The notes under the pieces were generated by a model, which did no database searches, was not told where the DNA came from, and worked only from the letters and a program-made list of their open reading frames with translations. 62,517 bases of DNA from an uncultured Clostridia bacterium (lineage in GTDB: Bacteria; Bacillota; Clostridia; Christensenellales; CAG-1252), in contig CAMPCZ010000001.1 in the NCBI GenBank assembly GCA_946648015.1, positions 1-62,517 of the forward strand. The letters are read 5' to 3'. Of this stretch, positions 41,371-61,221 are shown piece by piece (the stretch's first letter is position 1; each line of letters opens with the position of its first letter). The position numbers and the translations under genes are program-made.

Positions 41371-41403
41371 AAAAAGGCACCCCACGTGGGGTGCCTTTTT
41401 GGG
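41371..41403. terminator. Bidirectional rho-independent terminator
   Basis: AAAAAGGCACCCC-ACGT-GGGGTGCCTTTTT. Confidence 0.85.
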
Positions 41404-41422: not shown

Positions 41423-41980
41423 TTAGATCTGCTCTATGGTGTCCACCACCAAGTACATATAGGTCTCTAATCCCTTCTCGAAGTATTCGACGTTGCGTGT
41501 ATTCACATACAATTTGCCGCGTATGCGCACGTGCGCGTTGCTGCCCAGATTGAAGTGCGAGCCGTCTTTCATCTCCATACGCACGCCGTTGTCGGGCACC
41601 GAGCCCGCCACGTAGGGGCAAGTCTTCACGGCGTTTTTGCACAACACGTAGTATTGGCTGGTACACGCAAAGGTGTAGCCCTCCATCTCTACGTTGCGTT
41701 GGTTGTACCGTACCAATTCGGCGCTTTGTGCCTCTTGTGCCGTGGTGGGCACGGGCAAGGTGCGGAAATTGACCTTTTGGTACTTGTTGCTTTGGGCTAT
41801 CGCCACCGGAATGGCTATACCGCACACGATGGCGATCACCAGCGCCACGACCACCACAACGATAATGACGCGTTTCCGTTTTTTTGCCCGGAGGGCTTGC
41901 GCCATCGCTTCGGCTTCTTGCTTGCGACGTGCCATTTCTTGGTTGCGTTTCTCTATTTGTCTTTCTTTGTTGGTTGCCAT
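41423..41980 (-). CDS. Single-pass membrane protein (basic coiled N-terminus, Cys-containing ectodomain), last gene of the long operon
   Basis: MATNKERQIEKRNQEMARRKQEAEAM..., then TM VIIVVVVVALVIAIVCGIAIPVAI. 3-nt gap from the upstream permease gene. Confidence 0.75.
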   Translation of the reverse strand: MATNKERQIEKRNQEMARRKQEAEAMAQALRAKKRKRVIIVVVVVALVIAIVCGIAIPVAIAQSNKYQKVNFRTLPVPTTAQEAQSAELVRYNQRNVEMEGYTFACTSQYYVLCKNAVKTCPYVAGSVPDNGVRMEMKDGSHFNLGSNAHVRIRGKLYVNTRNVEYFEKGLETYMYLVVDTIEQI

Positions 41981-41983
41981 AGT

Positions 41984-43210
41984 TTACCTCAAATAGCGAT
42001 TCGGCTCGGTGTTATAGACCATAAGTGCGGGCAACAGCGTCGCCACCAGCCCAACGGCGTAGCTGCCCAAAATGATATACAATTCGCTCACGTACAGTCG
42101 GGTGGGAATGATGACGATGCCCAACATTCTCGTAAACGTGCCGCCTACGATGGCCAAGCCCGCAAAGGACAATAGCCAAGCCGCCAAGCAACTGAGGGTG
42201 AGTATCACCGCCGATTCCAACAACATCGTCAGCAATATTTTGCCGCGGTTGCTGCCCAACGCGCGCAGTATGGCCACGTCGCGCCTGCGCTCGCCCGCCG
42301 AGGTGAACATTGCCAAAAACAGCATATTGAATGCCATTATGATGACGATCACGATGATGGCCAGCACGATTTGACTTGCGTCGCCAAACAGGCTGAAAAC
42401 GTCGTGCAACGTATCTATGGTGTTGGCCAGCGTTACGGCGGTGGCATTGTCGTAGGCGGCCATCAGATTGTTCATGCCCGTCATGTTGGCCGCCACCAAC
42501 ACCAGGTGTATAAATCCCTCTTCGGCGTGGTTTTCTTCCTCCGCTTCCTCCTCTTCCTCTTCGGGCGCCTCGGCGTGCGAGGCCCACACGGCTTGGTAGT
42601 GCGTGTAGGCTACGTTATCCACGGCGGTATTGGTGCGCTCCAATATGCCCACTACGGTGTATGCGAATTGGGCGTGCTCGCCCTCGGCGTCTTGGCTATG
42701 GCTGGCGGTAAACACGTCGCCCACCCCAAGGTGCAGGCTGTCGGCCACCGCGCTGCCCAGCACCACATCGGCGCCCGTCGTTTGGTGCTGCCATTCGCCC
42801 AAATAGCCGCCTTCGGCCGTCTTGTATAGTATTTGGTCGCCTTGCGCGAAGAAGGTGTCGTCGGTGCCGATGACGCGATAGGTGGTGCCCGTGATGAAAT
42901 CGGCCATGGCTATGGGCACGGCGGCGACTACGCCGTCTATCCCCTTGATTTGCTCGTATTGCGCGAAGGGCAGGCGCTTTTTGGGCATATCGTAGAAAAA
43001 CAGGCCGTCCAGCACCAGGTCGGTTTCGGAACAGTTGCCGCCCAATACGTAGGTGTAGCGCTCGGTGGATATGCCGAATTGGTCGTTGACCTGTGCCGAC
43101 ACGTTGACCATTATGAGCATCAAAAGTATGCTGACGGTGCAAGATATGACTACCAGCACGTTGCGCAGGGGTTTTGCCAACAGATTGTTTTTTACAAAGC
43201 GCAACAACAT
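41984..43210 (-). CDS. ABC transporter permease, FtsX/MacB type
   Basis: N-terminal TM, large extracytoplasmic domain, then three C-terminal TMs, which is the FtsX-like architecture. An acidic EEEEEAEEE insert is present. Confidence 0.9.
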   Translation of the reverse strand: MLLRFVKNNLLAKPLRNVLVVISCTVSILLMLIMVNVSAQVNDQFGISTERYTYVLGGNCSETDLVLDGLFFYDMPKKRLPFAQYEQIKGIDGVVAAVPIAMADFITGTTYRVIGTDDTFFAQGDQILYKTAEGGYLGEWQHQTTGADVVLGSAVADSLHLGVGDVFTASHSQDAEGEHAQFAYTVVGILERTNTAVDNVAYTHYQAVWASHAEAPEEEEEEAEEENHAEEGFIHLVLVAANMTGMNNLMAAYDNATAVTLANTIDTLHDVFSLFGDASQIVLAIIVIVIIMAFNMLFLAMFTSAGERRRDVAILRALGSNRGKILLTMLLESAVILTLSCLAAWLLSFAGLAIVGGTFTRMLGIVIIPTRLYVSELYIILGSYAVGLVATLLPALMVYNTEPNRYLR

Positions 43211-43213
43211 AGC

Positions 43214-43876
43214 CTATTCCTCCCCCTGGTTGATATCATAGATATCCAGCACCTCGTCGAATTTGTCGGCGAGGGATAGGTCGTGGCTTATCACCAGCAG
43301 AGTGGCGCCGCAAGCGCGTGCGCTGGCAATGAGCAGATCCATTATGGCGCCGCTGTTGCGCCTGTCCAAATTGCCCGTCGGCTCGTCGGCCAATAGCACT
43401 TTGGGCACGTTGACCAATGCGCGCGCAATGGCAACGCGCTGTTTTTCTCCGCCCGACATCTTGTTGACTTTGCGGGTGGCTTTGTCACCCAAACCCACTT
43501 TGTCCAATGCCTCTTTGGCGCGCTGTTTGGCGGTGGCGGCGCTCAATTTTTGGGTGGCAAAAGTAAGGGGCACCATCACGTTTTCGAGAGCGCTAAAACC
43601 GTCAAACAGGTTGAAATCCTGAAAGACGTACCCCACGTTGTCGGCTCGAAAGGCGTCGCGCTCGCGCTCCGACATAAGTTGTACCATGGCATCCCCCACT
43701 TGCACGATGCCTGCCTCGGGCAAGGCCAGACCCGATATGATATTGAACATAGTCGTTTTGCCCGTGCCCGACTCGCCCTTGATAAAATAGGTCTTGCCGT
43801 CCTCGAACTCTTGGTACGGAATATTCAAAACGACGCGTCCGTCGTACGAACGCTTGATTTCTTGCAAAATGATCAC
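43214..43876 (-). CDS. ABC transporter ATP-binding protein (MacB/LolD-like)
   Basis: Walker A GESGTGKTT, signature MSGGEKQRVAIARAL, Walker B LLADEPTGNLD, H-loop SHD. Confidence 0.93.
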   Translation of the reverse strand: MIILQEIKRSYDGRVVLNIPYQEFEDGKTYFIKGESGTGKTTMFNIISGLALPEAGIVQVGDAMVQLMSERERDAFRADNVGYVFQDFNLFDGFSALENVMVPLTFATQKLSAATAKQRAKEALDKVGLGDKATRKVNKMSGGEKQRVAIARALVNVPKVLLADEPTGNLDRRNSGAIMDLLIASARACGATLLVISHDLSLADKFDEVLDIYDINQGEE

Positions 43877-43937
43877 GAAAAAAATACCTCCTCTATCGTA
43901 GATTGCAGTCGATTGTCGTATTGCGGTCGATAGAGGG

Positions 43938-44237
43938 CTAACAGTTGAGTTTGACCAAAAAGAGGGGGTTTACGGCGCGACGCACGCGGCCGCTTTTGAC
44001 GTAGCGGCGGCGCAATGCTATACCCGCCGATAGGATGAAAACGATCAATGTCGCCGTGCCCGAAAGGCTCATGCAAACGCGGCAAACGGCGCAGTCGCAG
44101 TGTCCCTCTACCGCGTGCATACCGCATATTGTGCAAGCCAAAACCAAGCCGACGACGGCCAGTAGCAGTAGCACCGCTATGGGTTTTGCAACGCGCGGAA
44201 GGGATCTCATAGCCACATTGTATTGCAGTCGACGCAT
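43938..44237 (-). CDS. Small Cys-rich two-TM membrane protein
   Basis: TM-CTICGMHAVEGHCDCAVCRVC-TM arrangement. Packed between flanking genes (4-nt and 61-nt gaps). The start may be at MRSLPR (44210). Confidence 0.5.
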   Translation of the reverse strand: MRRLQYNVAMRSLPRVAKPIAVLLLLAVVGLVLACTICGMHAVEGHCDCAVCRVCMSLSGTATLIVFILSAGIALRRRYVKSGRVRRAVNPLFLVKLNC

Positions 44238-44241
44238 TTTG

Positions 44242-44811
44242 TCAAGAGCGCAACGCTTCGTCTATGCGGGCAAACAAGGCGTCGTATTCGGCCGCCGACA
44301 TTTTGGTTTTGGGCGAGGCCATATAGTGCAAGGTGTGCAGATTGTCGCGGTCTTGGTCGTTGGTGAGCATATCGTACGCTTCCTCTACGGCCGCTTCGCT
44401 TGCTTGCCGGAGGTGCGGCATATTGTCGGCGGCGCGTTGCCAAAAACCGCTGTCGTGCGGCCAAACGGCCTGCATATCCAACCGGCGATAGCCGTCATCG
44501 CTCCATTTGGCGACGGTGCCGTCGGCGCATATTTGGTATTGCGCGCTTTGCGCCACCTCTTTGGAAAAGTCGGCGGGACGCAGCGATTGGTGCGCCAATA
44601 CCAAAAAGCGATAAACGACGTAGTAACCCGCCCAATCGGGCGTCTCCCATACGGCGTTGCCTATGTAGAGGGTAGCGGTTTCTCTTTCCCACCTGCCCTC
44701 GCCGGGGTCGGTTTTGTCGAACACCAAACGCAAGGATAGATGGTGGTAGTCGCAATAGGCGTTGACGGCGTCGGTTACGTTGCGCCTATATAGCGGCGTG
44801 GGGCTGTACAT
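44242..44811 (-). CDS. Hypothetical 189-aa soluble protein
   Basis: Its start codon directly abuts the stop codon of the 917-aa gene. Trp/Tyr-rich. No family recognised. Confidence 0.75.
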   Translation of the reverse strand: MYSPTPLYRRNVTDAVNAYCDYHHLSLRLVFDKTDPGEGRWERETATLYIGNAVWETPDWAGYYVVYRFLVLAHQSLRPADFSKEVAQSAQYQICADGTVAKWSDDGYRRLDMQAVWPHDSGFWQRAADNMPHLRQASEAAVEEAYDMLTNDQDRDNLHTLHYMASPKTKMSAAEYDALFARIDEALRS

Positions 44812-47565
44812 CTATTTTCTCCCCCACAGACCGCGTTTTTTGGGCTTGGCTTGGTCCAATAGACTTTGGCAATAGGCTCTGAACTGCGGGTCGGGCAGTT
44901 TGGCTATGGCCGCTTCGGCTTGGGGCGCGCCCTGCTTGCCTTGCGCCGCCACAAAGCTCATCAGTACCTCGCGCACTTCGGTCGATTCGGCGGTGGCCAT
45001 CTCGCGCGTCGCTTCGGTTTGGGCATATTGACTTAGGCTCGCCGCTACCGCCAACACTTCGATTAGCGCCGCTTGGCGCCGCTCGGCTTTTTCGGCTTCG
45101 TCTTTCTTTTTGGCCGCCTTGCCCTTGGGGCCTGCGTCTTCTCCCTCGGGTACGGCAAAGGGGTTTTGGCGTGCTTCGTACACGTCGGACAGTCGCAATT
45201 CGCCCGTTTTCAAATAGTTGAGCACGGCCTGCAAAAAACAGGTGCCTGCGCCAAGGTTTGCCGCTTGCGCCGCCTCTTTGTCCAAATAGTTGGCCATAGC
45301 CACGCGTAGCGCTTTGTCTTTGGGCAACCGCTCCAGGCTCTCTACGGCGCGGCGAACGTCGCCCGACAATAGGCCTTGTTTCAGCGCCAAATAGTCGGCG
45401 ACGGGGGCAAGTTTGTCGCTATTGGCCGCCTCGTGCTCGCGCGCGTAGTCGCACAACGTTTCGGCACCGCCGACCACGTCGGGGTGGCGAAATACGTCCA
45501 GCGCCGAGTTGCCGATGGCGGGGCGCAGCACCTCGTCGAGGTAGGCCTCGGCAAACGCGGGCGCCGCCTCGTTGCGGGTGTTTGCCAACGTTTCGACAAA
45601 CTCTTTTTCGAGCGCCATCAACGCGTAAATGTCCCCTTTGGCGGGGTGCAGTCTGTTTCCTTCGGCGATAGCCGCCATCAATTTGGCGGCAGAGGACTTG
45701 TTGAGGAAAGCAAAAGAGCGCCACATACGCGCCACTTGCTCGGTGCGTTGCACGATGCCTTCGCGGCACAATATTTCGGCCCACTCACCCAAAATTTTGC
45801 GCGTGGACCAAGCGCCCAATATCACGCCCACCATCATGTTGTACGCAAAGCCCTGCATACGAGGCAACGCCTCCAACAATGGGTGCTGGCGATGGCGTTG
45901 TTCGGCCTCCAGCTCGGCGCACATTTGCTTGGCTACGCGTTGTTGCAGCTCGGTTTTTTCTTGTGAAACGTGGCGGTCTATCCAGTCGGCCAGCGTCAAG
46001 GCCAATTCGTCGCCGTCGGGCAGATTTTCTACGAATACGTCGTACACGAGGTCGCGGCTTGTGGGGCTCAGCTTTTTGTAGTGACGGTCGAGGAAGTCGA
46101 GTATTTGCCCTTGCACGGCCTTGGTGCGTATGGACAGCAGCACCTTGCTCACCACAAAGTCGCGCGTTTCCATCGGCTCGCCGTCAAAGGTGGCGTCGAA
46201 AAACTCAAGTATTTGCGGTTGCAAAAATCCGCCGTAAAACACGCGCGAAAGGTTGTCGTTGATGCGGCGTTTGGTCTCTTCGTCCTCCCCCTTGTAGTTG
46301 GCGCGTATAAAGGCAAACAGTTTGTCGCGCATGATGTCTGTGTGTATCAACTCCAGCACCACCGACATGATCACCCGCTTAGTGCCCGCTATTTCGGTTG
46401 GGTACAACTTGCCGAGTTTGGCAAAAACGACTTTGGGTATGGCTTGGTGCGTCGCGGGGTAGCGATTGAGGCTCTTGCAGGCGTTGATGCGGTATTCGTC
46501 CGACATGGCCTGCCGCGCCTTTTCGTACAGCGTAAAGAAGTCGGTAACGCGGTCGTCGTTGGGCAAAATGGCCGCTTCGTCAAAAAGGCCCGAGCCCGTG
46601 CGGAACAAAAACACCAGGTCGGATAGCGACTTGAGATTGAGCGCGCCCAAGGCGGGCACCTTGCTCACCGCGCGGTGTGTCGATAGCAAAAACTCGCGGC
46701 GCAAGGCGTCGTTGGACAACAGACTATAGAAGAACTCTACCATATTGCCGTTGGCGACTATATCCTCGTCTTTGACGCCCGTCACCGTTTTGGTGCCGAA
46801 GTGGAAGTACGCACCTTTGGCAAGGGGCACGTGGTTGATGTCTTTGTCTACGGCCTTCAGTTTGATATTGGCAAAGCGTTGCAGATCCGACACGCGGGTG
46901 GCAAAGCCCAGCTCGCCGCGCAGATGGTAGGGCATGATTTGCAGCATACTGTTGACAAACCGCAATGCCGTCTGCGAAGACTCGTCGTCGGTGAGTTGGA
47001 AATACACGCCTTTAATCTTGCCGCAGGCGGCGGCCAGCATGGCGTAGATAAAGCGCTTGACGGTCATCAGGTCGAAGGTGTGCAGCACCCATTCGGTGGG
47101 CTCGGCGGCGCGCGGCGCAAAGGCGACCGTGGGATAGTCGCGCATAGGCTTGGCCGCGGGGTTGGTAATGTCGAAGGGCGCTATGTCCTTGACGAATGCG
47201 TCGGCGTTCAAAAGGTCGTAGTCGGCTTGGCACAACACCTCGGCGCTCTCGGCGGGGGCATACACCAAGTTGTGCACCAAATAGGCGCTGCGCTCCCCCG
47301 TGTAGTCGGTGGGCATATAGGATATGCAACTCTGCACCAGCCGCCCGTCTTTGGCCTCGAACTGATAGTAGGCCGCCTCTATGGTGTGGGTACGCAACAG
47401 GGCGGCCTCTTGGGGCGACAGTCTGTTTTCGCACAAAGGCGCCAAATCTTTTTCGATAAATTCGCGCTCCAGATCGGCCGAACAGGCAAACGTATCGAAG
47501 CTGTCGGTACGATTGAACATACTGATTTTGGCCGGCACGCGGCTGTAGAGTTGTTGCGATGCCAT
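44812..47565 (-). CDS. Hypothetical 917-aa protein coupled to pilB (globular N-domain plus long alpha-helical repeat region)
   Basis: Strong RBS AGGAGGG. Starts 8 nt after the pilB stop. No Walker or other catalytic motif seen. The C-terminal two thirds are helix-rich. Confidence 0.85.
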   Translation of the reverse strand: MASQQLYSRVPAKISMFNRTDSFDTFACSADLEREFIEKDLAPLCENRLSPQEAALLRTHTIEAAYYQFEAKDGRLVQSCISYMPTDYTGERSAYLVHNLVYAPAESAEVLCQADYDLLNADAFVKDIAPFDITNPAAKPMRDYPTVAFAPRAAEPTEWVLHTFDLMTVKRFIYAMLAAACGKIKGVYFQLTDDESSQTALRFVNSMLQIMPYHLRGELGFATRVSDLQRFANIKLKAVDKDINHVPLAKGAYFHFGTKTVTGVKDEDIVANGNMVEFFYSLLSNDALRREFLLSTHRAVSKVPALGALNLKSLSDLVFLFRTGSGLFDEAAILPNDDRVTDFFTLYEKARQAMSDEYRINACKSLNRYPATHQAIPKVVFAKLGKLYPTEIAGTKRVIMSVVLELIHTDIMRDKLFAFIRANYKGEDEETKRRINDNLSRVFYGGFLQPQILEFFDATFDGEPMETRDFVVSKVLLSIRTKAVQGQILDFLDRHYKKLSPTSRDLVYDVFVENLPDGDELALTLADWIDRHVSQEKTELQQRVAKQMCAELEAEQRHRQHPLLEALPRMQGFAYNMMVGVILGAWSTRKILGEWAEILCREGIVQRTEQVARMWRSFAFLNKSSAAKLMAAIAEGNRLHPAKGDIYALMALEKEFVETLANTRNEAAPAFAEAYLDEVLRPAIGNSALDVFRHPDVVGGAETLCDYAREHEAANSDKLAPVADYLALKQGLLSGDVRRAVESLERLPKDKALRVAMANYLDKEAAQAANLGAGTCFLQAVLNYLKTGELRLSDVYEARQNPFAVPEGEDAGPKGKAAKKKDEAEKAERRQAALIEVLAVAASLSQYAQTEATREMATAESTEVREVLMSFVAAQGKQGAPQAEAAIAKLPDPQFRAYCQSLLDQAKPKKRGLWGRK

Positions 47566-47573
47566 AGTCCCTC

Positions 47574-49256
47574 CTATTCGGCGTTGAGCGTCATCAATTC
47601 AGCCAAACTCGTGATGCCCTTAAACACCAGCGATTGGCAGGATTGCCACAACCGCACCATGCCGCTTTTCAACGCCAATTCGCGCAAGGTGTCGAGGTTG
47701 CGACTGCGCGCCACCTCGTTCTTCATCTCGTCGTCCATAAACAAAATTTCGTGTATGGCAATACGGCCCTTATAGCCCGTGTTGCCGCAGAATTGGCACC
47801 CCACGGGGCGGAAAATGCTGATGGGTTCGCTAATGCCCAATATTTCCATCTCTTTGGCTGTGGTTTTGCCGCGTTTTTTGCACGCGGGGCACAAACGTTT
47901 GACCAAACGTTGGGCGATAACGCCCGCCAACGCGTCGGCTACCAAATACTCGGGTATGCCCATATCCTCCAAACGCGTGATGGCGCCGGGGGCGTCGTTG
48001 GTGTGCAACGTGCTGAATACCAAGTGGCCCGTGATGGCGGCGCGGACGGCGATTTCGGCGGTCTCCTCGTCGCGGATCTCGCCTATCATGATGATGTCGG
48101 GGTCTTGGCGCAAAAAGGCGCGCAATGCGGTGGCAAAGGTCATATTGGCCTTGGTGTTGACTTGCGTTTGGTTGATGCCCGCCATCGTAAACTCTACGGG
48201 GTCCTCTACCGTGATGATGTTGACGGTGGGGTTGTTCACTTCTTTGAGGAAAGAATACAGCGTGGTGGATTTGCCGCAGCCCGTGGGGCCGGTCAGCAAT
48301 ATGATGCCGTGCGGTTTGGCCAGCATCTTGTCGATGATCACGTTCTCCTCATCGGTAAAGCCCAAGTCGGTGCGCGTAAAGTGGAAAGACGTCTTGTCCA
48401 GAATACGGATAACGAATTTTTCGCCGTAAACGGTGGGCATACTCGACACACGAAAGTCGAACTCTTTGCCGCCTACTATCATATTGATACGACCGTCTTG
48501 GGGGATACGCCTCTCGGCGATGTTCAGGCCGGACAGTATCTTGAGGCGGGCGCATATCGCCGAGTAGGATTCCCTAGGAAACCCAGGACGGTCTTGCAGG
48601 TCGCCGTCGATACGATAGCGCACGCGCACGCGCTTTTCAAAAGGTTCGATGTGTATATCGCTGGCGCGGTAGGGAATGGCCTCTTTGATGATGCTGTCCA
48701 CCAAGCGCACGGCGGGGTTGTTGATGACGTCGTTGCCCTGAAAGATCTCGCTCGCGTTGCGGTCGGCAAACAGTTGGTCGTCCTTTTCGGCGTTGAGGTC
48801 GTTGAGCGCCGCCGATGTGGTGATAACGGCCGACACGGCGTCGATATAGCGGTCTATTTGGGAAGGGGGCGTCAGCACGTAGTCGACGGGGCCCGAGTAG
48901 CAGATGGACATTGCCGACAACGTGGAGCAGTCCATCGGGCGGCCGATGGCTACCAGCAGTACGCCGTTGAGGTCGATGCTGACGGGCACCATCTTGTGCG
49001 TTTTCATAAAGTCGAAGCCGAACAGATTGAACAGGTCGCGGTCTACGTCCAGCATCTCCAACTCTATGGTGGGCAGGTTGTAATACTCGCTCAATGCGTC
49101 CAATTCGCCCACTTCGGTGATGTATTCTTTGGTCAGCATATAGTCGCGCACGTGCGTCTTGACGCGCGCGGCGTCCACCAATACGTCGTCCGCCGTCTTT
49201 CGCGTCAGCACTTTTTTGTACACGTAATATTGCATCAATTCATAGTCGATATTCAT
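47574..49256 (-). CDS. pilB: Type IV pilus / type II secretion assembly ATPase (GspE/PilB family)
   Basis: Walker A GPTGCGKST, Asp box, Walker B IIMIGEIRDEETA, His box TGHLVFSTLHTND, tetracysteine CPACK...CQFC. Confidence 0.95.
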   Translation of the reverse strand: MNIDYELMQYYVYKKVLTRKTADDVLVDAARVKTHVRDYMLTKEYITEVGELDALSEYYNLPTIELEMLDVDRDLFNLFGFDFMKTHKMVPVSIDLNGVLLVAIGRPMDCSTLSAMSICYSGPVDYVLTPPSQIDRYIDAVSAVITTSAALNDLNAEKDDQLFADRNASEIFQGNDVINNPAVRLVDSIIKEAIPYRASDIHIEPFEKRVRVRYRIDGDLQDRPGFPRESYSAICARLKILSGLNIAERRIPQDGRINMIVGGKEFDFRVSSMPTVYGEKFVIRILDKTSFHFTRTDLGFTDEENVIIDKMLAKPHGIILLTGPTGCGKSTTLYSFLKEVNNPTVNIITVEDPVEFTMAGINQTQVNTKANMTFATALRAFLRQDPDIIMIGEIRDEETAEIAVRAAITGHLVFSTLHTNDAPGAITRLEDMGIPEYLVADALAGVIAQRLVKRLCPACKKRGKTTAKEMEILGISEPISIFRPVGCQFCGNTGYKGRIAIHEILFMDDEMKNEVARSRNLDTLRELALKSGMVRLWQSCQSLVFKGITSLAELMTLNAE

Positions 49257-49265
49257 AGTCGCTCC

Positions 49266-50477
49266 TTAGACCAACGTCGTCATGATCGAAATCATAGGCG
49301 AGTACATCGCCACAAACAAAGTGCCCACCACGCCGCCCATTATGGCGAGCAAAATGGGTTGCAGCTTGCCGATGATACTCTGTATGGTGGTGTTGACTTG
49401 TTCGTCAAAAAAGCCGCAAGAGCGCGTCAGCACCTCGTCGAGGGCATTGCTGCGCTCGCCTACGGCTATCATTTGTATCAACAGGTCGGGAAATAGTTTG
49501 TATTTGCTGAAAGTGGCGGCAAGTTGCGCGCCTTGGCGCACGTCCTCCACCGCTTTGTTGAAGCGCTGCAATTCCTCTTGGTTGCCCAGCACCACCTTGA
49601 TGGTGTCCAAGGCGTCGATAACGTCCATGCCGCTGGACAACAGCAGGCCGAACCCGCGCGCAAAACGCGCCGTGATCTGCGCCATCACGATCTTGCGCAC
49701 AAAGGGGAATTGGAGTTTGAACCGATCCAAGGTGAGCCTGCCGCTCTTGGTCTTGCGAAATACCAAAAACAGCGCGACCAGGGCAATGAGCACCACCAAG
49801 ATCACCTTCCAATAGGCCAAGAAAAAGTCGGACAGATCCCATACGGCCTTGGTCAAAGCGTTGGGTTGTACCTCCAGCGAACTCAGCGAATCGCGGAAGG
49901 TGGGCACCACGAATAGCATCATCACCACGGTAATGGCTATGGTCATCAATAGCAGCATGATGGGGTACGCCATGGCACTGCGCGCCTTTTTGCGCATAGA
50001 GGCGTCGTTTTCGTAGTAGTCGGCCAGGTTGTTGAACACCATTTCGAGCTTGCCCGAAGCCTCGCCTACGTAGATCATGTTGCGGAAAAAGGCAGGAAAC
50101 ACTTTGTTGTGTTTGTCCAGCGCTTCGGACAGCATTTTGCCTCCCTTTACGTCCTCGTACACTTGATCCAAAATGTCGCGGAAAAACTTGTCGTAGGACT
50201 GCGCGCGCAAATTGGACAGGCACTCCAAGATGGAGGTGCCCGAGTTGATCATAATGGCGAATTGTCGGCAAAACGCCGTCAGGTCACCCAGTTTTACCTT
50301 GCCGCTGCCGAGGGTGAAAAAGCTGCTGGGGCCTTTGCCGTGGTCTACGGTGTACGAAATCAAAAAGAGATTTTGCTTCGCCAACTCGGTGGCCAGCTCC
50401 TTTTCGTTTTCGGCTACGAAAGTGCCGTGGAATTTCTCCTTGTATAGATTGACGGCGACGTACTTGTATTTGCGCAT
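49266..50477 (-). CDS. pilC: Type IV pilus platform protein (GspF/PilC family)
   Basis: Duplicated GspF-type domain (FCRQFAIMINSGTSILECL and FARGFGLLLSSGMDVIDAL) with three TM segments. Start at MRKYKY. Confidence 0.92.
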   Translation of the reverse strand: MRKYKYVAVNLYKEKFHGTFVAENEKELATELAKQNLFLISYTVDHGKGPSSFFTLGSGKVKLGDLTAFCRQFAIMINSGTSILECLSNLRAQSYDKFFRDILDQVYEDVKGGKMLSEALDKHNKVFPAFFRNMIYVGEASGKLEMVFNNLADYYENDASMRKKARSAMAYPIMLLLMTIAITVVMMLFVVPTFRDSLSSLEVQPNALTKAVWDLSDFFLAYWKVILVVLIALVALFLVFRKTKSGRLTLDRFKLQFPFVRKIVMAQITARFARGFGLLLSSGMDVIDALDTIKVVLGNQEELQRFNKAVEDVRQGAQLAATFSKYKLFPDLLIQMIAVGERSNALDEVLTRSCGFFDEQVNTTIQSIIGKLQPILLAIMGGVVGTLFVAMYSPMISIMTTLV

Positions 50478-50479
50478 AG

Positions 50480-51691
50480 TTAGAAGTTGTTGTGCGTGTT
50501 GTATTGCACGGCGTACAGCCCGCCGTACAATTCGAGATGGCGCGCTACTATATCTTTCTCTTTGTCCAGCCCCAGGCGCTGGAAGGTTACGCCGTTCTCT
50601 TGCTTTTCGAGGTTGACCATGTCGTACAAATAGTCGTATTGTTGGGGCATATTGACAAATACGGTATCCACCGCGCCCATATCGCGCAGGCGCGGATTGC
50701 CCGCAATGAATTCCAACGTCCACTTGACGAATATGCGAAAGTTTTCGTACACGTAGCCCTCGGCCGTTTCGGGCGTGGGGCGTTGCATATACTTGGGCAG
50801 TACGCGGGGCGTCTTTTTGGGCAGGGTCTTGATCTGCGCTACGCGGGGCGCCGCGGTCGTCTCTTCAAAGGACATCTCGGCGTCAAAGGCGCCCTCGGTC
50901 GCGTTTTCGGTGCCCTCGGCCGCGTCCAACACGTTGTCGCCGCCTGCCATGGTCAGTTGCTTGGCTTTGGCCTTCTCTTTGGCGTTGACCACCGCCAACT
51001 CCGCGACCGTGTGGTCAAACAGCATATTTTCGGCCACCAATTTGTTGTCCTGCAATATGCCAAAGCCAAAAGGCAAGTCGTAGCAGCCCACCGTGGTGCC
51101 GTGCACCACGTAGCAAATGCGGCTGTAGGTCTCTTTGATGTCCAACAGCACGAAGGTGCCGTTTTTGAGTTTGCCGTTGAGGGCCATTGCGCCGTCTACC
51201 ACGGCGTTGGACTCAAAGGTCAGCACGTTGGCAAACATATTGTTGCTGCTGCAACAAGTGAACAGCGCCTGCAACAGCTTTTGCCGTATCAGCACCAAGT
51301 TGACCGTGCTGTATTGGCGATTGCTTGCCGACACGTATTTGTTGTAGCGCAACTCGGACAGGTTGCGGTAGCGCGCTTCGACGGCCACCGTGGTCAGGTT
51401 GTCCGCGCTACGGCGGCTCACGCCCGGAATGTTGACGCTATCCATCAGCACCGTGCTGTCGGGCACGATCAAGGTCACTTTCGCGGCTTTGCCGGCAAAG
51501 GAGACCTTGGTGGTGCTGTATTCGGCCAACAATTTGGCGAATTCGCGGTAGAATTCGTCGGTAAAAGGACGGCTTTTGAGCGGCTTGCTTTCCATTTGAA
51601 TGCTCGCCTTGTCGCCGCCCACGGCCGAATAGAACCGCACGCTTTTGTCGTGCAGTCGTATGGAGATAACCGTTGAGAATACTTGTGCCAT
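50480..51691 (-). CDS. PilM-like (actin-fold) pilus assembly protein, divergent
   Basis: Its position between the minor pilins and pilC, and its size, fit PilM. It has alternating beta-strand segments (TLIVPDS, FVLLDIKETYSRICYV). The assignment is weak. Confidence 0.55.
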   Translation of the reverse strand: MAQVFSTVISIRLHDKSVRFYSAVGGDKASIQMESKPLKSRPFTDEFYREFAKLLAEYSTTKVSFAGKAAKVTLIVPDSTVLMDSVNIPGVSRRSADNLTTVAVEARYRNLSELRYNKYVSASNRQYSTVNLVLIRQKLLQALFTCCSSNNMFANVLTFESNAVVDGAMALNGKLKNGTFVLLDIKETYSRICYVVHGTTVGCYDLPFGFGILQDNKLVAENMLFDHTVAELAVVNAKEKAKAKQLTMAGGDNVLDAAEGTENATEGAFDAEMSFEETTAAPRVAQIKTLPKKTPRVLPKYMQRPTPETAEGYVYENFRIFVKWTLEFIAGNPRLRDMGAVDTVFVNMPQQYDYLYDMVNLEKQENGVTFQRLGLDKEKDIVARHLELYGGLYAVQYNTHNNF

Positions 51692-51803
51692 TTTTTCTTT
51701 CCTTTGATTTGCGGTTCGTGCGGGTCGTTGTATTGCACGCGCCCCAGTGCGAACGCACGTATGCGCGGCCGCGCGCGTGTACGTTTCGGCGTTTTGGGTG
51801 GGG

Positions 51804-52172
51804 CTAACGCCCCCACTTGACGATAGTCGCCACGCTACCCGTGCCCGTTGTTTCTACCAAAAGCAAAGACGTCGTGCCGTCCTTGCTCTTGACGTTCAGG
51901 CGTTTGCCGCCCGCTATATCTTCTACCGCTACGGTGTAGTCGCTATAGGCTGTTTCGTCAAAGTCGGTTTCTTGCCTCTGCGCTTGCCAAAAGGCCTCGC
52001 CTATGGCGTCCACTGCTATGCGATCGCCCACGTTTTGTTCGGTGCGCCGATTGAGTACGCCTGTCAGTTGCGCCACCACCAATAGTATGGTGCTCAGTGC
52101 AAACACCACCAGCATGGTCGTTATGGCCATCTCTATCGCTATACCCTTGCGGTTGCGCCAAAGTTTTTTCAT
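51804..52172 (-). CDS. Minor pilin-like protein with an atypical prepilin N-terminus
   Basis: MKKLWRNRKG-IAIEMAITTMLVVFALSTILLVV: basic leader, Gly, a Glu near +4/+5, and a hydrophobic helix. Confidence 0.6.
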   Translation of the reverse strand: MKKLWRNRKGIAIEMAITTMLVVFALSTILLVVAQLTGVLNRRTEQNVGDRIAVDAIGEAFWQAQRQETDFDETAYSDYTVAVEDIAGGKRLNVKSKDGTTSLLLVETTGTGSVATIVKWGR

Positions 52173-52567
52173 TAATAATATCTGGTATACGGTTCTATTT
52201 CGAGTATGCCGCGCCCTTTTTTGTCCGACGCAGATGCGGCAAACGTCGCCGATTCGGCGCCATAGCCCACTTCCAGCCGTATTACATAATCATTGCCCTC
52301 GAGGGTGTATACGTCGCCCGCTACGCCATAGGCATAGCCCAGTGCGAACACTTCGGCCTCGAAGTCGGTGCGATCGTCGCAATACTTGAAGCATTCGAGG
52401 GTATTTTCCACTATGTTGGTGGCCTCGTTGCGTTGCATCATACGCGCGCTTACCGCGGCGAAATGGGTGATGAGCGTCGTTGCCGCCGCACTCACGACCA
52501 ATATGACGGCCATCGCTATCACCGCTTCGGCCAGGGATATGCCGCGTCTATTGCGCAATAGCTTCAT
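52172..52567 (-). CDS. Minor pilin-like protein
   Basis: MKLLRNRRG-ISLAEAVIAMAVILVVSAAA: prepilin-like leader with Glu at +5. Overlaps both flanking genes by 1-4 nt. Confidence 0.7.
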   Translation of the reverse strand: MKLLRNRRGISLAEAVIAMAVILVVSAAATTLITHFAAVSARMMQRNEATNIVENTLECFKYCDDRTDFEAEVFALGYAYGVAGDVYTLEGNDYVIRLEVGYGAESATFAASASDKKGRGILEIEPYTRYY

Positions 52568-53082
52568 ACGGCCGCCCCCGTGGCACGCGTGGCCACCAGC
52601 ACCGTGTAGTTGCCTACCGATTCGCTGCGTTTGACGATGGTGTTGGGCAGGTTGTATGCCATGGTGCAGCGTATCAACTGCCGATTTTGCGCGTTGGTTT
52701 TCACCTCGAAGCGCATAGACGTAACGTGGTCTAACGGCGCGTTGCCTTCTGCCGTCGGCACGTCGAAGACTACGGCGCCTTGGTCGCTCAGGTAGAAGGA
52801 ATGCGTCTCGCTTGGCTCCGCAATGGATACGGCGAGCAATACGCCGTTGGCGTCGTCGGTATCGAAATAGTATTGCGCGTTGTCGTATGCGGCCACGAAT
52901 TGCCGCAAAAAAGCGTCGGCTTGCCGCTCGCTTTCGGTTACGTTGTAGCGCGAGGTGCCCCATTGGCTCCAACCGTTGCACATTATGGTAAAGGAAACCA
53001 CCATTACGGTCATGATGCTCACCACGGCCATAACGACGACCAATTCCATCAAGGTAAATCCTTTTTTGCCGGCTATGCGCAT
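52564..53082 (-). CDS. Prepilin-type N-terminal cleavage/methylation domain protein (minor pilin)
   Basis: MRIAGKKG-FTLMELVVVMAVVSIM is a canonical class III signal. Confidence 0.85.
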   Translation of the reverse strand: MRIAGKKGFTLMELVVVMAVVSIMTVMVVSFTIMCNGWSQWGTSRYNVTESERQADAFLRQFVAAYDNAQYYFDTDDANGVLLAVSIAEPSETHSFYLSDQGAVVFDVPTAEGNAPLDHVTSMRFEVKTNAQNRQLIRCTMAYNLPNTIVKRSESVGNYTVLVATRATGAAV

Positions 53083-53158
53083 TGTTCGGAGCCCCCATCA
53101 AAAAGGGGCACCGCGGCACCCTAAGGTGTACGGTGCCCCCGATTGGGTGTTAAATCAA

Positions 53159-53716
53159 TTATTTAACGATGGCAACGACGGTCTCGGGGAGGTCGGCGTT
53201 GGTGTACACTTCAACGGCTTGCTCGCCATAGGTGGCGGCGATAGCGGTGCCTTCTTGGTAGTTGTTGGCGTCGTTGAGGGTGGCGGGGGCGGTCAAAGCA
53301 AAAGCTTTGTCATCATTGTTGGCATTGTCCAAAGCGGCTTTTACCAAAGCAATAATATTGGTTTGCTCGGCGGCGACGTCGGTCGCTCTCACGAAGATTT
53401 TCCAGGTGCCGGCAGCGGAGGTGGCGTCTTTAGCGGCGGCCAAGGACTCGGTCTTGGTGCTGTCGTAGACAAGGAAGTGTTTGGCAGCTTCGCCTTTCTT
53501 CTCGGACACGGCGAACACGGTGCCGTCGCCCAAACCGTAGGTGTCGGATACTACGTTCTCGAGAGCGTTCTTGGCGGTTTGCAAAGCGGCGCTTGCACGA
53601 GATTTGGCAATAACGGTGGTGAAGGTGGGGATCAAGACCGCGGCCAAGATGGCGATGACGGCGATGACGATAACGAGTTCAACGATGGTGAAACCTTTTT
53701 TGTTCAATTTTTTCAT
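53159..53716 (-). CDS. Type IV (pseudo)pilin, probable major subunit (185 aa)
   Basis: MKKLNKKG-FTIVELVIVIAVIAILAAVLIPTF is a canonical class III signal. First pilin gene of the operon. RBS AGGAGA. Confidence 0.9.
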   Translation of the reverse strand: MKKLNKKGFTIVELVIVIAVIAILAAVLIPTFTTVIAKSRASAALQTAKNALENVVSDTYGLGDGTVFAVSEKKGEAAKHFLVYDSTKTESLAAAKDATSAAGTWKIFVRATDVAAEQTNIIALVKAALDNANNDDKAFALTAPATLNDANNYQEGTAIAATYGEQAVEVYTNADLPETVVAIVK

Positions 53717-53896
53717 AATAATCTCCTATTTTTTGTTTTTTTAGTTGGACGAACCGCCCCCTCGGGCAACGACGAAACCGCGCGTACAAACAATGGGTTA
53801 CTGCGCCCTCCGTCGTATGTATTTGCGGAGTGCCGAGGCCCGAAAAAACGGTCGATAAATTGTCGTAGAATGGGTTGTGGGCGCCTTAGCCCTATG

Positions 53897-54367
53897 TCAG
53901 GAAATCAACCTGCAAAATGTAAGATATATCCTACGACGCGGGGCGGGGGTGGAAAAGACGCCGACATTTGCGGCGGCGGATTTTCCGGCGCGCGCATTCC
54001 GCCCGAGACGCCGATACATGTCTTTGGCCATCTGCACGCTACTCTCAACGATGTAGAATACCGTGGACAAGATGACGGTAATTGCCAAAAAGACGACGGC
54101 ATACAAAAGGTCGGTGGATAGCGCATTGATCTGCCGATATAGATCGGTAAACGCGTCGTAAATGTCGCTTGCGTCCCACAAGCTCCATTTGTTGACCCCA
54201 AGCCCCAGATGTGCCACGTCCAATACAAACAAGAAGTAGAACCAGGCCGTCAGCGCAATATAAAGCACACCGTAAGCCGTTGCCGCCCACTTAAGCTGCT
54301 TTTTGTACAAAAAGCGCACGAGCGACACTGCCACCAGCGACCATAATAGTAGAAGCGCAACGATCAT
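53897..54367 (-). CDS. Small polytopic membrane protein, paralogue A of the pilin-associated family
   Basis: RBS AAGGAGA before MIVALLLLW. About three TM segments and a basic tail ending RRRIYLTFCRLIS. Compare QKKYLSFCSFLC and QKRYLAFCSILC in the two plus-strand paralogues. Confidence 0.7.
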   Translation of the reverse strand: MIVALLLLWSLVAVSLVRFLYKKQLKWAATAYGVLYIALTAWFYFLFVLDVAHLGLGVNKWSLWDASDIYDAFTDLYRQINALSTDLLYAVVFLAITVILSTVFYIVESSVQMAKDMYRRLGRNARAGKSAAANVGVFSTPAPRRRIYLTFCRLIS

Positions 54368-54927
54368 CCAATCTCCTTCGGCATTAGTATATGCCGTATT
54401 CGGCCGACCTATCCGCACGATAGGGCCCGATCTTGTTTGCAGTATGCCGTTTGTTTCGTAAAACAGCCGACAATTTGCTTAGAATACGTTCAGTATAGCA
54501 CGTGCGGAAACAAATGTCAAATAGTATAATCATAACACTTGTTTAAGTTATAGTTAAAAATGCGACAAAAAACAATACAAAACGTATAGACCGTGGCTTT
54601 TTTGGGGGTTAATCATTCGTCTACGGACCATTTTTCGTTGCGATTTGACGTCGATTTTTGTGCGGAGGTATCAAAAACGACCATACGTCCACGGCAATTT
54701 TGTATCTATTGCAGTCAAATCGCCTCAAAAAAGAACAAAAAACGCACGGGTTACACTTGCAGTTCGCCGCCGAAGTTGTCGAAAAAACGCTAAAAGAATA
54801 CAAAACGTATAGATTTTGTGGCGTTGGCGAGCCGCGTTATGTGCCGGCAAGCCCCATTCTCGGAGACGAAATGAGTGTTTCTTTGTAATAATTAAGTGCT
54901 ATAATGTTTGCATTTTTTACTTGTGAA

Positions 54928-54936
54928 TGCTATAAT
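54928..54936 (+). promoter_or_regulatory. Extended -10 element TGCTATAAT (a second copy at 54897-54905)
   Basis: Exact TGnTATAAT 38 nt upstream of the ATG at 54974. The identical 9-mer recurs at 58166-58174 ahead of the second cassette. Confidence 0.5.
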
Positions 54937-54973
54937 GTGGTGTAGATACGTTTTATATTATGGTGTGAGTAAT

Positions 54974-55411
54974 ATGCTGTCAGCGATATGCTTATTGTTC
55001 AATGTATTGATCGTCGTGTATTTCGGCGTGACCAAGCGCAGGGCGTTGTGCGCCTTGTATGCGCTTGCTTTGGGCACTATCGCTATTATGATAGTATTCC
55101 CCTTCGACACCGAAGAGGGCGTGGCGTTTTGGGCGAGCATTTTCGGCGACTCGGTATACGACGCCGCTCCTTGGATAGCCGATACCTATGCGCGAACGAT
55201 ACTCACCCCCTACTTCGGATTGGAACTGCTATCCTTTCTTTTGGCGTTGGTTTTTACCCTCAAAACAGCCGAAAAGGTGTATTATTTGTGTCGCTCCAAG
55301 TCGAGCGCTCGTTTTCAAAAAACAAACAAAACTCCCTCGTTTGCGGCGAGAAAACCTCGCTTTTCTCGCGTGCAAAAGAAGTATTTGTCCTTTTGCTCTT
55401 TTTTGTGTTGA
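54974..55411 (+). CDS. Small 3-TM membrane protein, paralogue B of the pilin-associated family
   Basis: MLSAICLLFNVLIVVYFGVTKRRALCALYALALG... is nearly identical over most of its length to the 58205 ORF. Basic tail ends KKYLSFCSFLC. Confidence 0.8.
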   Translation: MLSAICLLFNVLIVVYFGVTKRRALCALYALALGTIAIMIVFPFDTEEGVAFWASIFGDSVYDAAPWIADTYARTILTPYFGLELLSFLLALVFTLKTAEKVYYLCRSKSSARFQKTNKTPSFAARKPRFSRVQKKYLSFCSFLC

Positions 55412-55468
55412 GTGCGCGTATAAACAGTACAAACCACACAAACTAAATTAAGACAAAAGGAGAATTAT

Positions 55469-57994: not shown

Positions 57995-58056
57995 TTCGCA
58001 TAAAACGTCCGGCGCCTAGGCCAAGCAAGTCTTGCTTGCCTTGGCGTGCCAAACCC

Positions 58057-58087
58057 GATCCCCCGACCTCGTCGGGGGATTTTTTTG
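58057..58087 (+). terminator. Rho-independent terminator after giant pilin 1
   Basis: ATCCCCCGAC-CTC-GTCGGGGGAT followed by T6. Confidence 0.85.
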
Positions 58088-58165
58088 CCGGATACGTTGG
58101 GCTAAAGCGGCCGAATATGCGTCAAAGCAATTTGTGTCAAAGCACTTGCACTACGTGCGCGCATA

Positions 58166-58174
58166 TGCTATAAT
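58166..58174 (+). promoter_or_regulatory. Extended -10 element TGCTATAAT for the second cassette
   Basis: Exact TGnTATAAT 31 nt upstream of the ATG at 58205. Confidence 0.5.
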
Positions 58175-58204
58175 ATTGTAAGTAACTGCGATATAAGAGG
58201 AATT

Positions 58205-58642
58205 ATGTTGTTAGCGATATGCTTTTTGTTCAATGTATTGATCGTCGTGTATTTCGGCGTGACCAAGCGCAGGGCGTTGTGCGCCTTGTATGCGCTTGCT
58301 TTGGGCATTTTCGCTATTATGATGGCGTTCCCCTTCGACACCGTAGATGGCGTGGCGTTTTGGGCGAGGATTTTCGGCGATTCGGTATACGACGCCGCTC
58401 CCTGGATAGCGGAAACCTACGCGCAGACCATCGTCACTCCCTACCTGGGGTTGGAGCTGCTTTCCCTCATTTTGGCGGTGGTCTTCACCCTCAAAGCAGC
58501 CGAAAATGTGTATTATCTGTGCCGCTCCAAACAGAGCGCGCGTTTCAACAAATCCATTGTGCCGCGTGCCATGCGTGCGCGCAAAGTCTCGTTCGACTTC
58601 GTCCAAAAGAGGTATTTGGCCTTTTGCTCTATTTTGTGTTGA
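58205..58642 (+). CDS. Small 3-TM membrane protein, paralogue C of the pilin-associated family
   Basis: RBS AAGAGGA. MLLAICFLFNVLIVVYFGVTKRRALCALYALALG.... Tail ends QKRYLAFCSILC. Confidence 0.8.
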   Translation: MLLAICFLFNVLIVVYFGVTKRRALCALYALALGIFAIMMAFPFDTVDGVAFWARIFGDSVYDAAPWIAETYAQTIVTPYLGLELLSLILAVVFTLKAAENVYYLCRSKQSARFNKSIVPRAMRARKVSFDFVQKRYLAFCSILC

Positions 58643-58701
58643 GTGAGCGTATAAACGACCGAAACAACTCACACTAAAATAAGACAAAAAGGAGAAAAAT
58701 C

Positions 58702-61146: not shown

Positions 61147-61165
61147 TCGTAGTATTCGGCTACAA

Positions 61166-61199
61166 AAGGGAAATCCCGCACAGGGATTTCCCTTGTTTG
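61166..61199 (+). terminator. Rho-independent terminator after giant pilin 2
   Basis: GGGAAATCCC (61168-61177) pairs with GGGATTTCCC (61183-61192), followed by TTGTTTGT. Confidence 0.8.
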
Positions 61200-61221
61200 T
61201 AGCAGTCGGAGGAGTTTTATT

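Follow-up and report, generated by a model that had tools for sequence, protein, structure and literature searches.

Introduction

GAP1 proteins were defined computationally as partners of double-GTPases (DO-GTPases) in predicted conflict systems, where GAP1 is normally encoded just downstream of its GTPase, in a work that mentions neither pili nor DENN nor longin (Kaur, Burroughs, Iyer & Aravind 2020, PMC7159879). Here we analyse a stretch of 62,517 nucleotides (nt) from an uncultured Clostridia bacterium of the Christensenellales (CAG-1252; assembly GCA_946648015.1, contig CAMPCZ010000001.1, positions 1 to 62,517; hereafter the window), and in particular a gene that encodes a product of 917 amino acids (aa), a divergent GAP1-N2 family member encoded directly after pilB, the gene of the type IV pilus extension ATPase. 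To our knowledge, GAP1 exists up to now only as a computational prediction linked to GTPases; little is understood about the type IV pili of monoderm gut bacteria, and the compact type of pilus operon found here has no known cytoplasmic regulator.

Several described systems resemble parts of this locus. TagF is a post-translational type VI secretion checkpoint that works through protein binding, with no GTPase involved, and it shares with the N-terminal part of the 917-aa protein a two-lobed alpha+beta / alpha-beta organization, which is predicted in the latter, and the fact of being encoded with a bacterial envelope nanomachine. However, TagF proteins are 220-320 aa long and lack a solenoid, their identity to our protein is 7-9 %, and they belong to diderm type VI secretion systems, binding Fha, Hcp and TagZ, none of which is present here, the setting being a type IV pilus operon. 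The eukaryotic DENN proteins (DENND1A/B, DENND10, folliculin, SMCR8/C9orf72) have a longin lobe and a three-layer alpha/beta core in the same order, with helical domains behind, and serve as a platform for nucleotide-dependent partners, whereas our protein has no Pfam DENN match and no small GTPase gene nearby; DENN and d-DENN were considered eukaryote-specific in an earlier work (PMC3521125). MacB, LolCDE and FtsEX (type VII) systems have, as the downstream genes of the window do, a separate LolD/FtsE-like ATPase and an FtsX permease with a MacB domain, but the partners encoded here, a Cys-rich protein with two transmembrane (TM) helices and the single-pass p185, belong to no named families. 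In Myxococcus xanthus, SgmX, a soluble tetratricopeptide repeat protein driven by the small GTPase MglA, probably acts on the PilB side, which is also the side proposed here for the 917-aa protein. Both are large soluble helical-repeat proteins, and we know of no homology between them.

The whole of our data is best explained, we believe with moderate confidence, by three separable units: a 917-aa adaptor that ends the pilus operon, the orphan gene p189, and an independent cassette (Cys-rich protein, ATP-binding cassette (ABC) ATPase, FtsX/MacB permease and p185).

Assignment of the 917-aa protein to the GAP1-N2 family

A first-pass annotation of this region, made from the letters alone, had recognised no family for the 917-aa protein. 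This was mistaken, as Pfam finds GAP1-N2 (PF20013) at residues 1-111 (E 1.3e-12; 48.3 bits, with the cut-off at 24), and the precomputed Pfam column gives the same family for 119 of the 120 homologues shown. GAP1-M (PF20014) reaches 17 bits in the 917-aa protein, under the cut-off of 24, and is given in that column for many of the homologues. At E<=0.01 Pfam found nothing beyond residue 241, the GAP1-C model not being among those searched. Furthermore, a family profile made from 120 homologues and run against 1.84 billion (1.84e9) representative proteins gave 338 matches at E <= 0.001, among them about 65 full-length clusters (~900 aa). A second group of matches (E 1e-25 to 1e-32), which aligns to residues 1-~330 alone, consists of proteins that Pfam identifies as canonical GAP1-N2 + GAP1-M. 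Because the profile reaches these canonical proteins over residues 1-~330, the N-terminal third of the protein is, judged from its sequence, truly GAP1, and the remainder is peculiar to this branch. All these data place the 917-aa protein in the GAP1-N2 family as a divergent member, and its gene is the only GAP1-N2 copy in the genome.

Besides the homology of its first ~330 residues, the protein resembles GAP1 systems in that its gene lies directly downstream of a gene for a nucleoside triphosphatase (NTPase), in its variable C-terminal part and in a predicted action at the inner membrane face. Unlike in those systems, the upstream NTPase is here the hexameric PilB, and a family-specific solenoid makes up the C-terminal ~590 residues. 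The DO-GTPase models PF19975 and PF19993 had no match in the genome of the window (G000), in the congeneric G005 or in three other carrier genomes, and no small GTPase gene is linked to the 917-aa gene. By Pfam, the neighbouring genes encode pilins, PilC, PilB and ABC proteins only, with no fibronectin type III (FNIII)-repeat, tubulin, HSP70, kinase or effector gene among them. Walker A is absent from both the 917-aa protein and the PilM-like protein of the operon, and the former has no TM segment (maximum 19-residue hydropathy 1.36). None of the four proteins without a known role (917-aa, p189, Cys-rich and PilM-like) had a match in PADLOC, NCBIfam or PHROGs, sequence-profile searches of the PDB gave chance matches or nothing for the 917 family, the PilM-like protein and p189, and no plasmid carrying a 917 homologue was found.

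The most divergent homologue lies in another kind of neighbourhood. At locus L079 (1487-13309) a 1121-aa frame (GAP1-N2 E 2e-8) is preceded by five co-directional genes without Pfam families. The product of one of these five, of 581 aa, has an N-terminal CxxC zinc ribbon, the Walker A sequence GSHNSGKT and an NKFD motif, and matches DO-GTPase2 at E 0.004, which falls short of the threshold and makes it a lead rather than a link. This locus may be a bridge to canonical GAP1 systems. An 866-aa protein encoded upstream is not claimed as a paralogue of the family, its hhalign probability against the family profile (0.18) not being significant.

Predicted structure and conservation of the 917-aa protein

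The AlphaFold2 (AF2) model of the protein, computed with the 120-sequence alignment, has a predicted local distance difference test (pLDDT) value of 93.1, and residues 1-270 modelled by themselves reached a pLDDT of 93.6 and a predicted template modelling score (pTM) of 0.91. The top Foldseek matches of this N-terminal module were TagF, DENND10, DENND1B, folliculin and C9orf72/SMCR8, TagF (PDB 9t0n, 6iz8, 2qnu) being the best structural match (E 2.6e-4). A VIA-align search of 48,161 chains, independent of Foldseek, gave seven matches at Z>=8, every one a DENN or longin protein. TagF had Z 9.5 over 227 residues, the DENN domain of folliculin Z 9.3 with a root mean square deviation of 2.7 over 105 residues (in the DENN-core lobe), DENND10 Z 8.8, SMCR8 Z 8.4 and DENND1A Z 8.1 (8.1-9.3 for the eukaryotic DENN proteins), and the Lokiarchaeal longin 8yqg Z 8.6 over residues 1-153. 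In the predicted model, the longin lobe would thus be the counterpart of GAP1-N2 and the DENN core that of GAP1-M. At E<=0.01 the Pfam scan found no DENN family (uDENN, DENN or dDENN) in the protein, and its identity to the DENN chains in the VIA-align search was 6-12 %. The solenoid behind these two lobes matched importin-beta, CAND1, PP2A-A and AP-1 at E ~1e-3 in Foldseek, which reflects a generic HEAT/ARM likeness.

In the entropy profile of the family, conservation peaks at residues 1-100 and 400-450. Residues 1-111 hold the most conserved stretch of the family, which includes a near-invariant DYTGER loop with the invariant D87 and E91. The solenoid is conserved to about residue 520 and variable from about 600, so that the last 300 residues vary. 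In addition, the extreme C-terminus is conserved across the 120-sequence alignment, with the family consensus ..SFFxKLFGKK and 71 of the 120 sequences ending in hydrophobic-Gly-Lys/Arg; in the protein of the window this tail is shorter (GLWGRK). It is a candidate amphipathic membrane-targeting tail, which we take, as a lead only, to resemble the membrane-targeting helix of MinD.

The 917-aa gene ends a compact type IV pilus operon

A scan of one genome per prokaryotic species for homologues of the 917-aa gene yielded the 80 loci analysed here, which all come from Clostridia of gut or rumen and their relatives. In 68 of these loci the gene directly upstream of the homologue is pilB, and pilC and the PilM-like gene are found in 63/80 and 60/80, respectively. 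The upstream pilB orthologues are 65-87 % identical, the gap between pilB and the homologue has a median of ~28 nt (usually 13-76 nt), and each homologue has its own Shine-Dalgarno sequence. The genes on the 3' side vary by lineage (PepF, UvrC, FeoB, helix-turn-helix proteins), and therefore the conserved unit ends with the 917-aa gene. As a conserved gene it closes a compact type IV pilus operon, which contains a small membrane protein, pilins and the PilM-like protein, PilC and PilB, and which has a patchy distribution in uncultured Clostridia of gut and rumen. The earlier view of the 917-aa protein as a lineage-specific partner of the pilus operon is thus borne out by its position after pilB in 68/80 loci.

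Among 61 genomes of the order of the window, the 917 family was found in two, G000 and G005, and strong PilM-like matches (E <= 1e-200) were restricted to the same two, G015 and G007 having weak ones (23-30 % identity). Profiling of 61 genomes around the pilus-less G061 found the gene in G061 alone and was uninformative. Two genomes, G126 and G127, have the homologue unlinked from pilB, which is located elsewhere in the genome.

Genomes with the 917-aa gene and no pilus

In one clade the gene order is ackA-greA-[pilus operon]-917-pepF (L051, L053, L059, L060, L061), and six further loci (L038, L041, L055, L057, L068, L071) have ackA-greA-917-pepF without the pilus operon. The homologues of these pilus-less genomes are intact (887-915 codons). 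No PF00437 (T2SS-E) ATPase was found in the six assemblies, which are possibly incomplete, and one was found in a sister control genome. Since the pilus-less copies are interspersed with operon-linked copies on the tree, several losses are needed. The ratio of nonsynonymous to synonymous substitution (dN/dS) was 0.17-0.25 for the retained copies against 0.12-0.17 for linked pairs, a rough comparison because dS is saturated. The 917-aa protein is therefore not, as core pilus machinery would be, present with the machine and absent without it; it is more stable than the machine that usually accompanies it. That the gene is intact where all pilus genes were lost implies a pilus-independent partner or role as well, and that it outlasts the pilus genes agrees with an adaptor or regulator that has one or more other partners, and not with a structural subunit.

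The persistence of the gene without pilus genes would also fit a conflict protein like those of the GAP1 systems from which it descends, directed against phages or plasmids and monitoring the pilus as a phage receptor with its variable C-terminal solenoid as the sensor, or a hitch-hiker on a mobile pilus island. A role in conflict systems is predicted for the family, evolution is fast in the C-terminal 300 residues, the distribution is patchy (2/61 genomes in the order of the window and 1/61 around G061), and in L079 the homologue stands behind the zinc-ribbon P-loop protein with its weak DO-GTPase2 match. We nevertheless consider this explanation unlikely: synteny with pilB (68/80) is far tighter than would be expected of a hitch-hiker, a dN/dS of ~0.12-0.25, with dS saturated, corresponds to ordinary purifying selection, and our searches found neither an effector domain, a GTPase or an FNIII partner nor a PADLOC match or a link to phages or plasmids.

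The ABC cassette and p189

The first-pass annotation had coupled the genes downstream of the 917-aa gene to the pilus operon as one transcription unit and proposed that the pump might export a pilus-associated substrate. None of p189, the Cys-rich protein, the permease and p185 has a homologue in any of the 80 pilus loci, so the expected co-occurrence with pilus genes failed once the profiling was run. The pump itself is of the predicted kind. The ATPase matches ABC_tran (PF00005; E 1.8e-32) and, in NCBIfam, LolD, lactococcin-972-type and FtsE models, each below the equivalog cut-off; the permease matches MacB_PCD (PF12704; E 1.2e-12), an extracytoplasmic domain, and FtsX (PF02687; E 4.9e-11). 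A four-TM FtsX permease with the MacB periplasmic core domain and a separate ATPase is what defines a MacB-type transporter. No gene for a membrane-fusion (HlyD-type) adaptor is present in the cassette, p185 being without a Pfam match. p185 is a single-pass membrane protein with an extracytoplasmic domain of ~120 aa, and it follows the permease also in G005 (65 %), in the metagenomic contig L093 (65 %) and in G014, a genome of another genus (41 %). Weak leads to CcmE (NCBIfam E 0.003) and to tRNA_anti-like proteins (ESM Atlas 0.78, with nothing above 0.79 in that resource) suggest that this domain is possibly an oligonucleotide/oligosaccharide-binding (OB) fold. Homologues of the Cys-rich protein precede the ABC genes in the same three genomes (G005, G014, L093), and the family has an invariant C...DCxxC in the outside loop that links the two TM helices, as well as a VKLNC tail; a loop with seven Cys residues is peculiar to the window. 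The hydropathy value of the Cys-rich protein is 3.05.

A promoter-like site matching the sigma-70 consensus at 11 of 12 positions, which had not been noted before, lies just before the Cys-rich gene (44245-44217), its -10 element 6 nt before an ATG at 44210 (Met10 of the 99-aa open reading frame (ORF)). The same layout is found in G005 (TTGACT-17-TACAAT-6 nt-ATG) and in L093 (TTGACT-18-TAAAAT-6 nt-ATG), and in G014 the site (TTGACT-17-TATTAT) is followed by a leader, so that a promoter-like site precedes the Cys gene in 4/4 cassette-bearing genomes. The position of the -10 element 6 nt before the ATG in three genomes predicts a leaderless mRNA starting from Met10. As far as can be read from sequence, this conserved internal promoter would separate the cassette from the operon, contrary to the single unit proposed before.

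The location of the cassette also varies. In G014 it is present at 41-74 % identity (the permease copy at 69 %), and no pilus operon, 917 gene or p189 was found in that genome. In the congeneric G005, the p189/Cys-protein/ABC/permease/p185 block is intact and in the same order, on the opposite flank of the pilus locus and divergent from it, and L093 has this layout together with the M20-peptidase/MFS (major facilitator superfamily) flank of the window. A strain 98-99 % identical to the window (L092/L091) keeps the operon, the 917-aa gene and p189, and has the cassette deleted: L092 (10567-10800) lost positions 44212-43803 and 43685-41450 of the window, so that the genes of the Cys-rich protein and of the permease are gone, together with nearly all of p185 and the ABC ATPase gene except for a 117-bp piece. 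The first breakpoint, 44212/44213, coincides with the predicted leaderless start. When positions 44812-61200 are compared with L084 (G005) and L093, the core of the pilus operon is in inverted orientation with respect to both the p189/ABC block and the giant-pilin cassette, and a single inversion is insufficient to explain the difference; rearrangements of this kind may be brought about by the paralogous small-membrane-protein and pilin 5' segments.

p189 forms three clusters among 5.8 billion (5.8e9) proteins and occurs in 2/61 related genomes. No match was found in Pfam, NCBIfam, PADLOC, PHROG or the PDB, and ESM Atlas gave nothing above 0.82, so that the failure of the first-pass annotation to recognise a family for it holds against every library used. 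It is a soluble, genus-restricted orphan, and it is separable from the cassette because it is present without it in L092 and absent from the cassette-bearing G014. Its start abuts the 917 stop in the species of the window only. In G005, a promoter-like TTACAA-16-TACACT (L084:4426-4470) lies 6 nt before the ATG of p189, which predicts a leaderless start there; this site is missing from the p189 gene of the window, which directly adjoins the 917 stop.

These data bear on the idea that everything from the pilins to p185 is one system, with the pump exporting or processing a pilus-associated substrate and with p189 and the Cys-rich protein as accessory parts of the pilus. No terminator is listed at the pilB/917 or 917/p189 junction and the sole clear hairpin is at ~41400, most junctions have gaps of 0-9 nt, the cassette adjoins the pilus locus in 4/4 genomes of the genus-level clade that have both, and p189 does so in 4/4 contexts. 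Yet the cassette occurs in 0/80 other pilus loci, is pilus-free in G014 and divergent in G005 and L093, has been deleted from a near-identical strain with an intact operon and carries its own conserved promoter-like site. We therefore regard a single system as improbable, and, in view of the same pilus-free, divergent and deleted arrangements, the export of a pilus-associated substrate is not supported. The cassette appears instead to be an independent exporter of the MacB type (mechanotransmission), with its own predicted promoter and a fixed pair of accessory membrane proteins; it is dispensable, ordinary and unrelated to the pilus, and no pilus-associated label is warranted.

Organization of the locus

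The six ORFs downstream of pilB are all on the minus strand at the coordinates first reported (Table 1), and Pfam agrees with the initial gene identities for pilB (T2SSE, E 1.3e-132; MshEN, E 8e-13), pilC (T2SSF), the ABC ATPase and the MacB/FtsX permease. The junctions could be read directly as described before. The TAG of pilB is followed by GAGGGACT (8 nt) and by the ATG at 47565, with an AGGAGGG that spans the pilB stop, and the TAG of the 917-aa gene (44814-44812) directly abuts the ATG of p189 at 44811. The TGA of p189 is separated by 4 nt from the ATG at 44237 of the Cys-rich ORF, and the remaining gaps are 61 nt (Cys-rich to ABC), 3 nt (ABC to permease) and 3 nt (permease to p185). The terminator at ~41371-41403, the hairpin GGCACCCCACGTGGGGTGCC plus a T-run, was also confirmed, and it is common to the convergent M20 peptidase gene. 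Terminator-like matches within coding regions numbered 25 against 21 expected by chance, some of them on the minus strand inside the 917-aa and Cys-rich ORFs.

Table 1. Coordinates of the genes, protein regions and regulatory elements of the locus in the window
Feature	Position	Strand	Description
pilB, type IV pilus extension ATPase	47574..49256	minus	560 aa; T2SSE + MshEN
917-aa GAP1-like protein	44812..47565	minus	predicted DENN-like module + alpha-solenoid + basic-aromatic tail
Longin-like lobe (predicted) = Pfam GAP1-N2	47233..47565	minus	residues 1-111; beta-beta-alpha-beta-beta-beta-alpha
DENN-core-like alpha/beta lobe (predicted) = Pfam GAP1-M region	46771..47103	minus	residues 155-265
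HEAT/ARM-like alpha-solenoid (predicted)	44848..46770	minus	residues 266-906; ~35 helices, pLDDT >90
Basic-aromatic tail KPKKRGLWGRK	44815..44847	minus	residues 907-917
p189	44242..44811	minus	soluble 189-aa orphan protein
Internal promoter-like site	44217..44245	minus	TTGACA-17-TACAAT; 11/12, sigma-70-like
Cys-rich two-TM ORF	43938..44237	minus	99 aa longest; 43938..44210 = 90 aa from Met10
ABC ATPase, LolD/FtsE/MacB type	43214..43876	minus	220 aa; Pfam ABC_tran
FtsX/MacB permease	41984..43210	minus	408 aa; Pfam MacB_PCD + FtsX
p185	41423..41980	minus	185 aa; fixed third gene of the ABC trio
Bidirectional intrinsic terminator	~41371..41403		perfect 9-bp GC-rich hairpin between A5 and T5

Upstream, a TG-extended TTGACA-17-TATACT on the minus strand (54492-54520; 11/12), in front of the first small membrane-protein gene, is likely the promoter of the pilus operon. 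The PilM-like gene (50480-51691, 403 aa) is kept in 60/80 loci, and its label is unverified, the protein having no Walker A and no sequence-profile match in Pfam, NCBIfam, PHROG or the PDB. A PilM-PilN fusion was considered for this 403-aa protein and rejected, as it has no TM segment. The longest pilC ORF (49266-50723) overlaps the PilM-like gene by ~240 nt. Because homologues align only from residue 83, translation of pilC probably begins near 50477, directly behind the stop of the PilM-like gene, which would give a protein of ~403 aa.

PilT and PilD had been reported missing, which is correct for the window and not for the genome, where PilD and a PilT-like ATPase are encoded on other contigs. 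In G000, a second PilB (564-aa frame) lies beside a prepilin peptidase (Peptidase_A24) at C51:7618-9806, and a 362-aa PilT-like ATPase is encoded at C87:3331-4113; G005 has the same second PilB/prepilin peptidase/PilT-like set. The second PilB/PilD locus has no 917 gene, since the genome holds a single copy. As this second set exists elsewhere, the operon of the window is an extra pilus system, which presumably borrows PilD.

Discussion

Our analysis suggests that the 917-aa protein is most likely a membrane-proximal adaptor or checkpoint on the PilB side and not a structural part of the pilus. It would be a cytoplasmic adaptor, probably held by its tail at the inner membrane face, and its DYTGER longin loop together with the solenoid helices at residues 400-450 could bind the pilus assembly platform, most likely PilB. 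Through such protein-protein contact it may gate or position assembly, in analogy to the TagF checkpoint on type VI secretion and to the docking of GAP1 on a GTPase. It would also have a pilus-independent partner or role, and the place of the cassette behind the pilus operon would be the result of local rearrangement.

Three points weigh against this reading. The DENN likeness is structural only (7-9 % identity, template modelling (TM) scores of 0.33-0.41) and concerns predicted models. Secondly, read-through from the pilus operon into p189 and the cassette is likely in this genome, because the consensus terminator scan listed no terminator at the pilB/917 or the 917/p189 junction. Lastly, given the six ackA-greA-917-pepF genomes that have no pilus operon, a purely pilus-dedicated role cannot be the whole story.

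The same six genomes, which hold the gene without any pilus ATPase, weaken the earlier suggestion of a structural machine part, and a role as a structural cytoplasmic stand-in for the missing alignment proteins PilN and PilO, although it would suit an operon without PilN/O/P/Q genes, with a PilM-like protein that has no TM segment and with the 917 gene nearly always in this operon type, is very doubtful since PilN and PilO are bitopic membrane proteins and the 917-aa protein has no TM helix, since the gene is kept where pilus genes are gone, and since the G126 homologue is unlinked from pilB.

The conserved ~900-residue protein encoded after pilB is thus a concrete candidate for a pilus regulator, for which natural comparisons exist in the operons with the 917 gene, the genomes with the 917 gene only and the strain without the cassette. 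Its branch indicates that a GAP1 module can work without a DO-GTPase, and on the predicted model the 917-aa protein would represent a new pilus-linked, GTPase-less GAP1 branch with a DENN-like fold. This predicted fold could connect GAP1 to TagF and to eukaryotic GTPase regulators, a connection that bears on how the DENN module arose. Going further, we raise tentatively, as a possibility still rather on the unlikely side, that GAP1 and TagF are bacterial DENN-type modules and general docking platforms for NTPase motors, of which one branch was re-wired, in gut Clostridia, from a DO-GTPase to PilB and has a MinD-like membrane tether and a second, pilus-independent partner. If this were true, the 917-aa protein would be the first DENN-like regulator of a pilus motor, and the DENN fold, held to be a eukaryotic invention, would be bacterial too.

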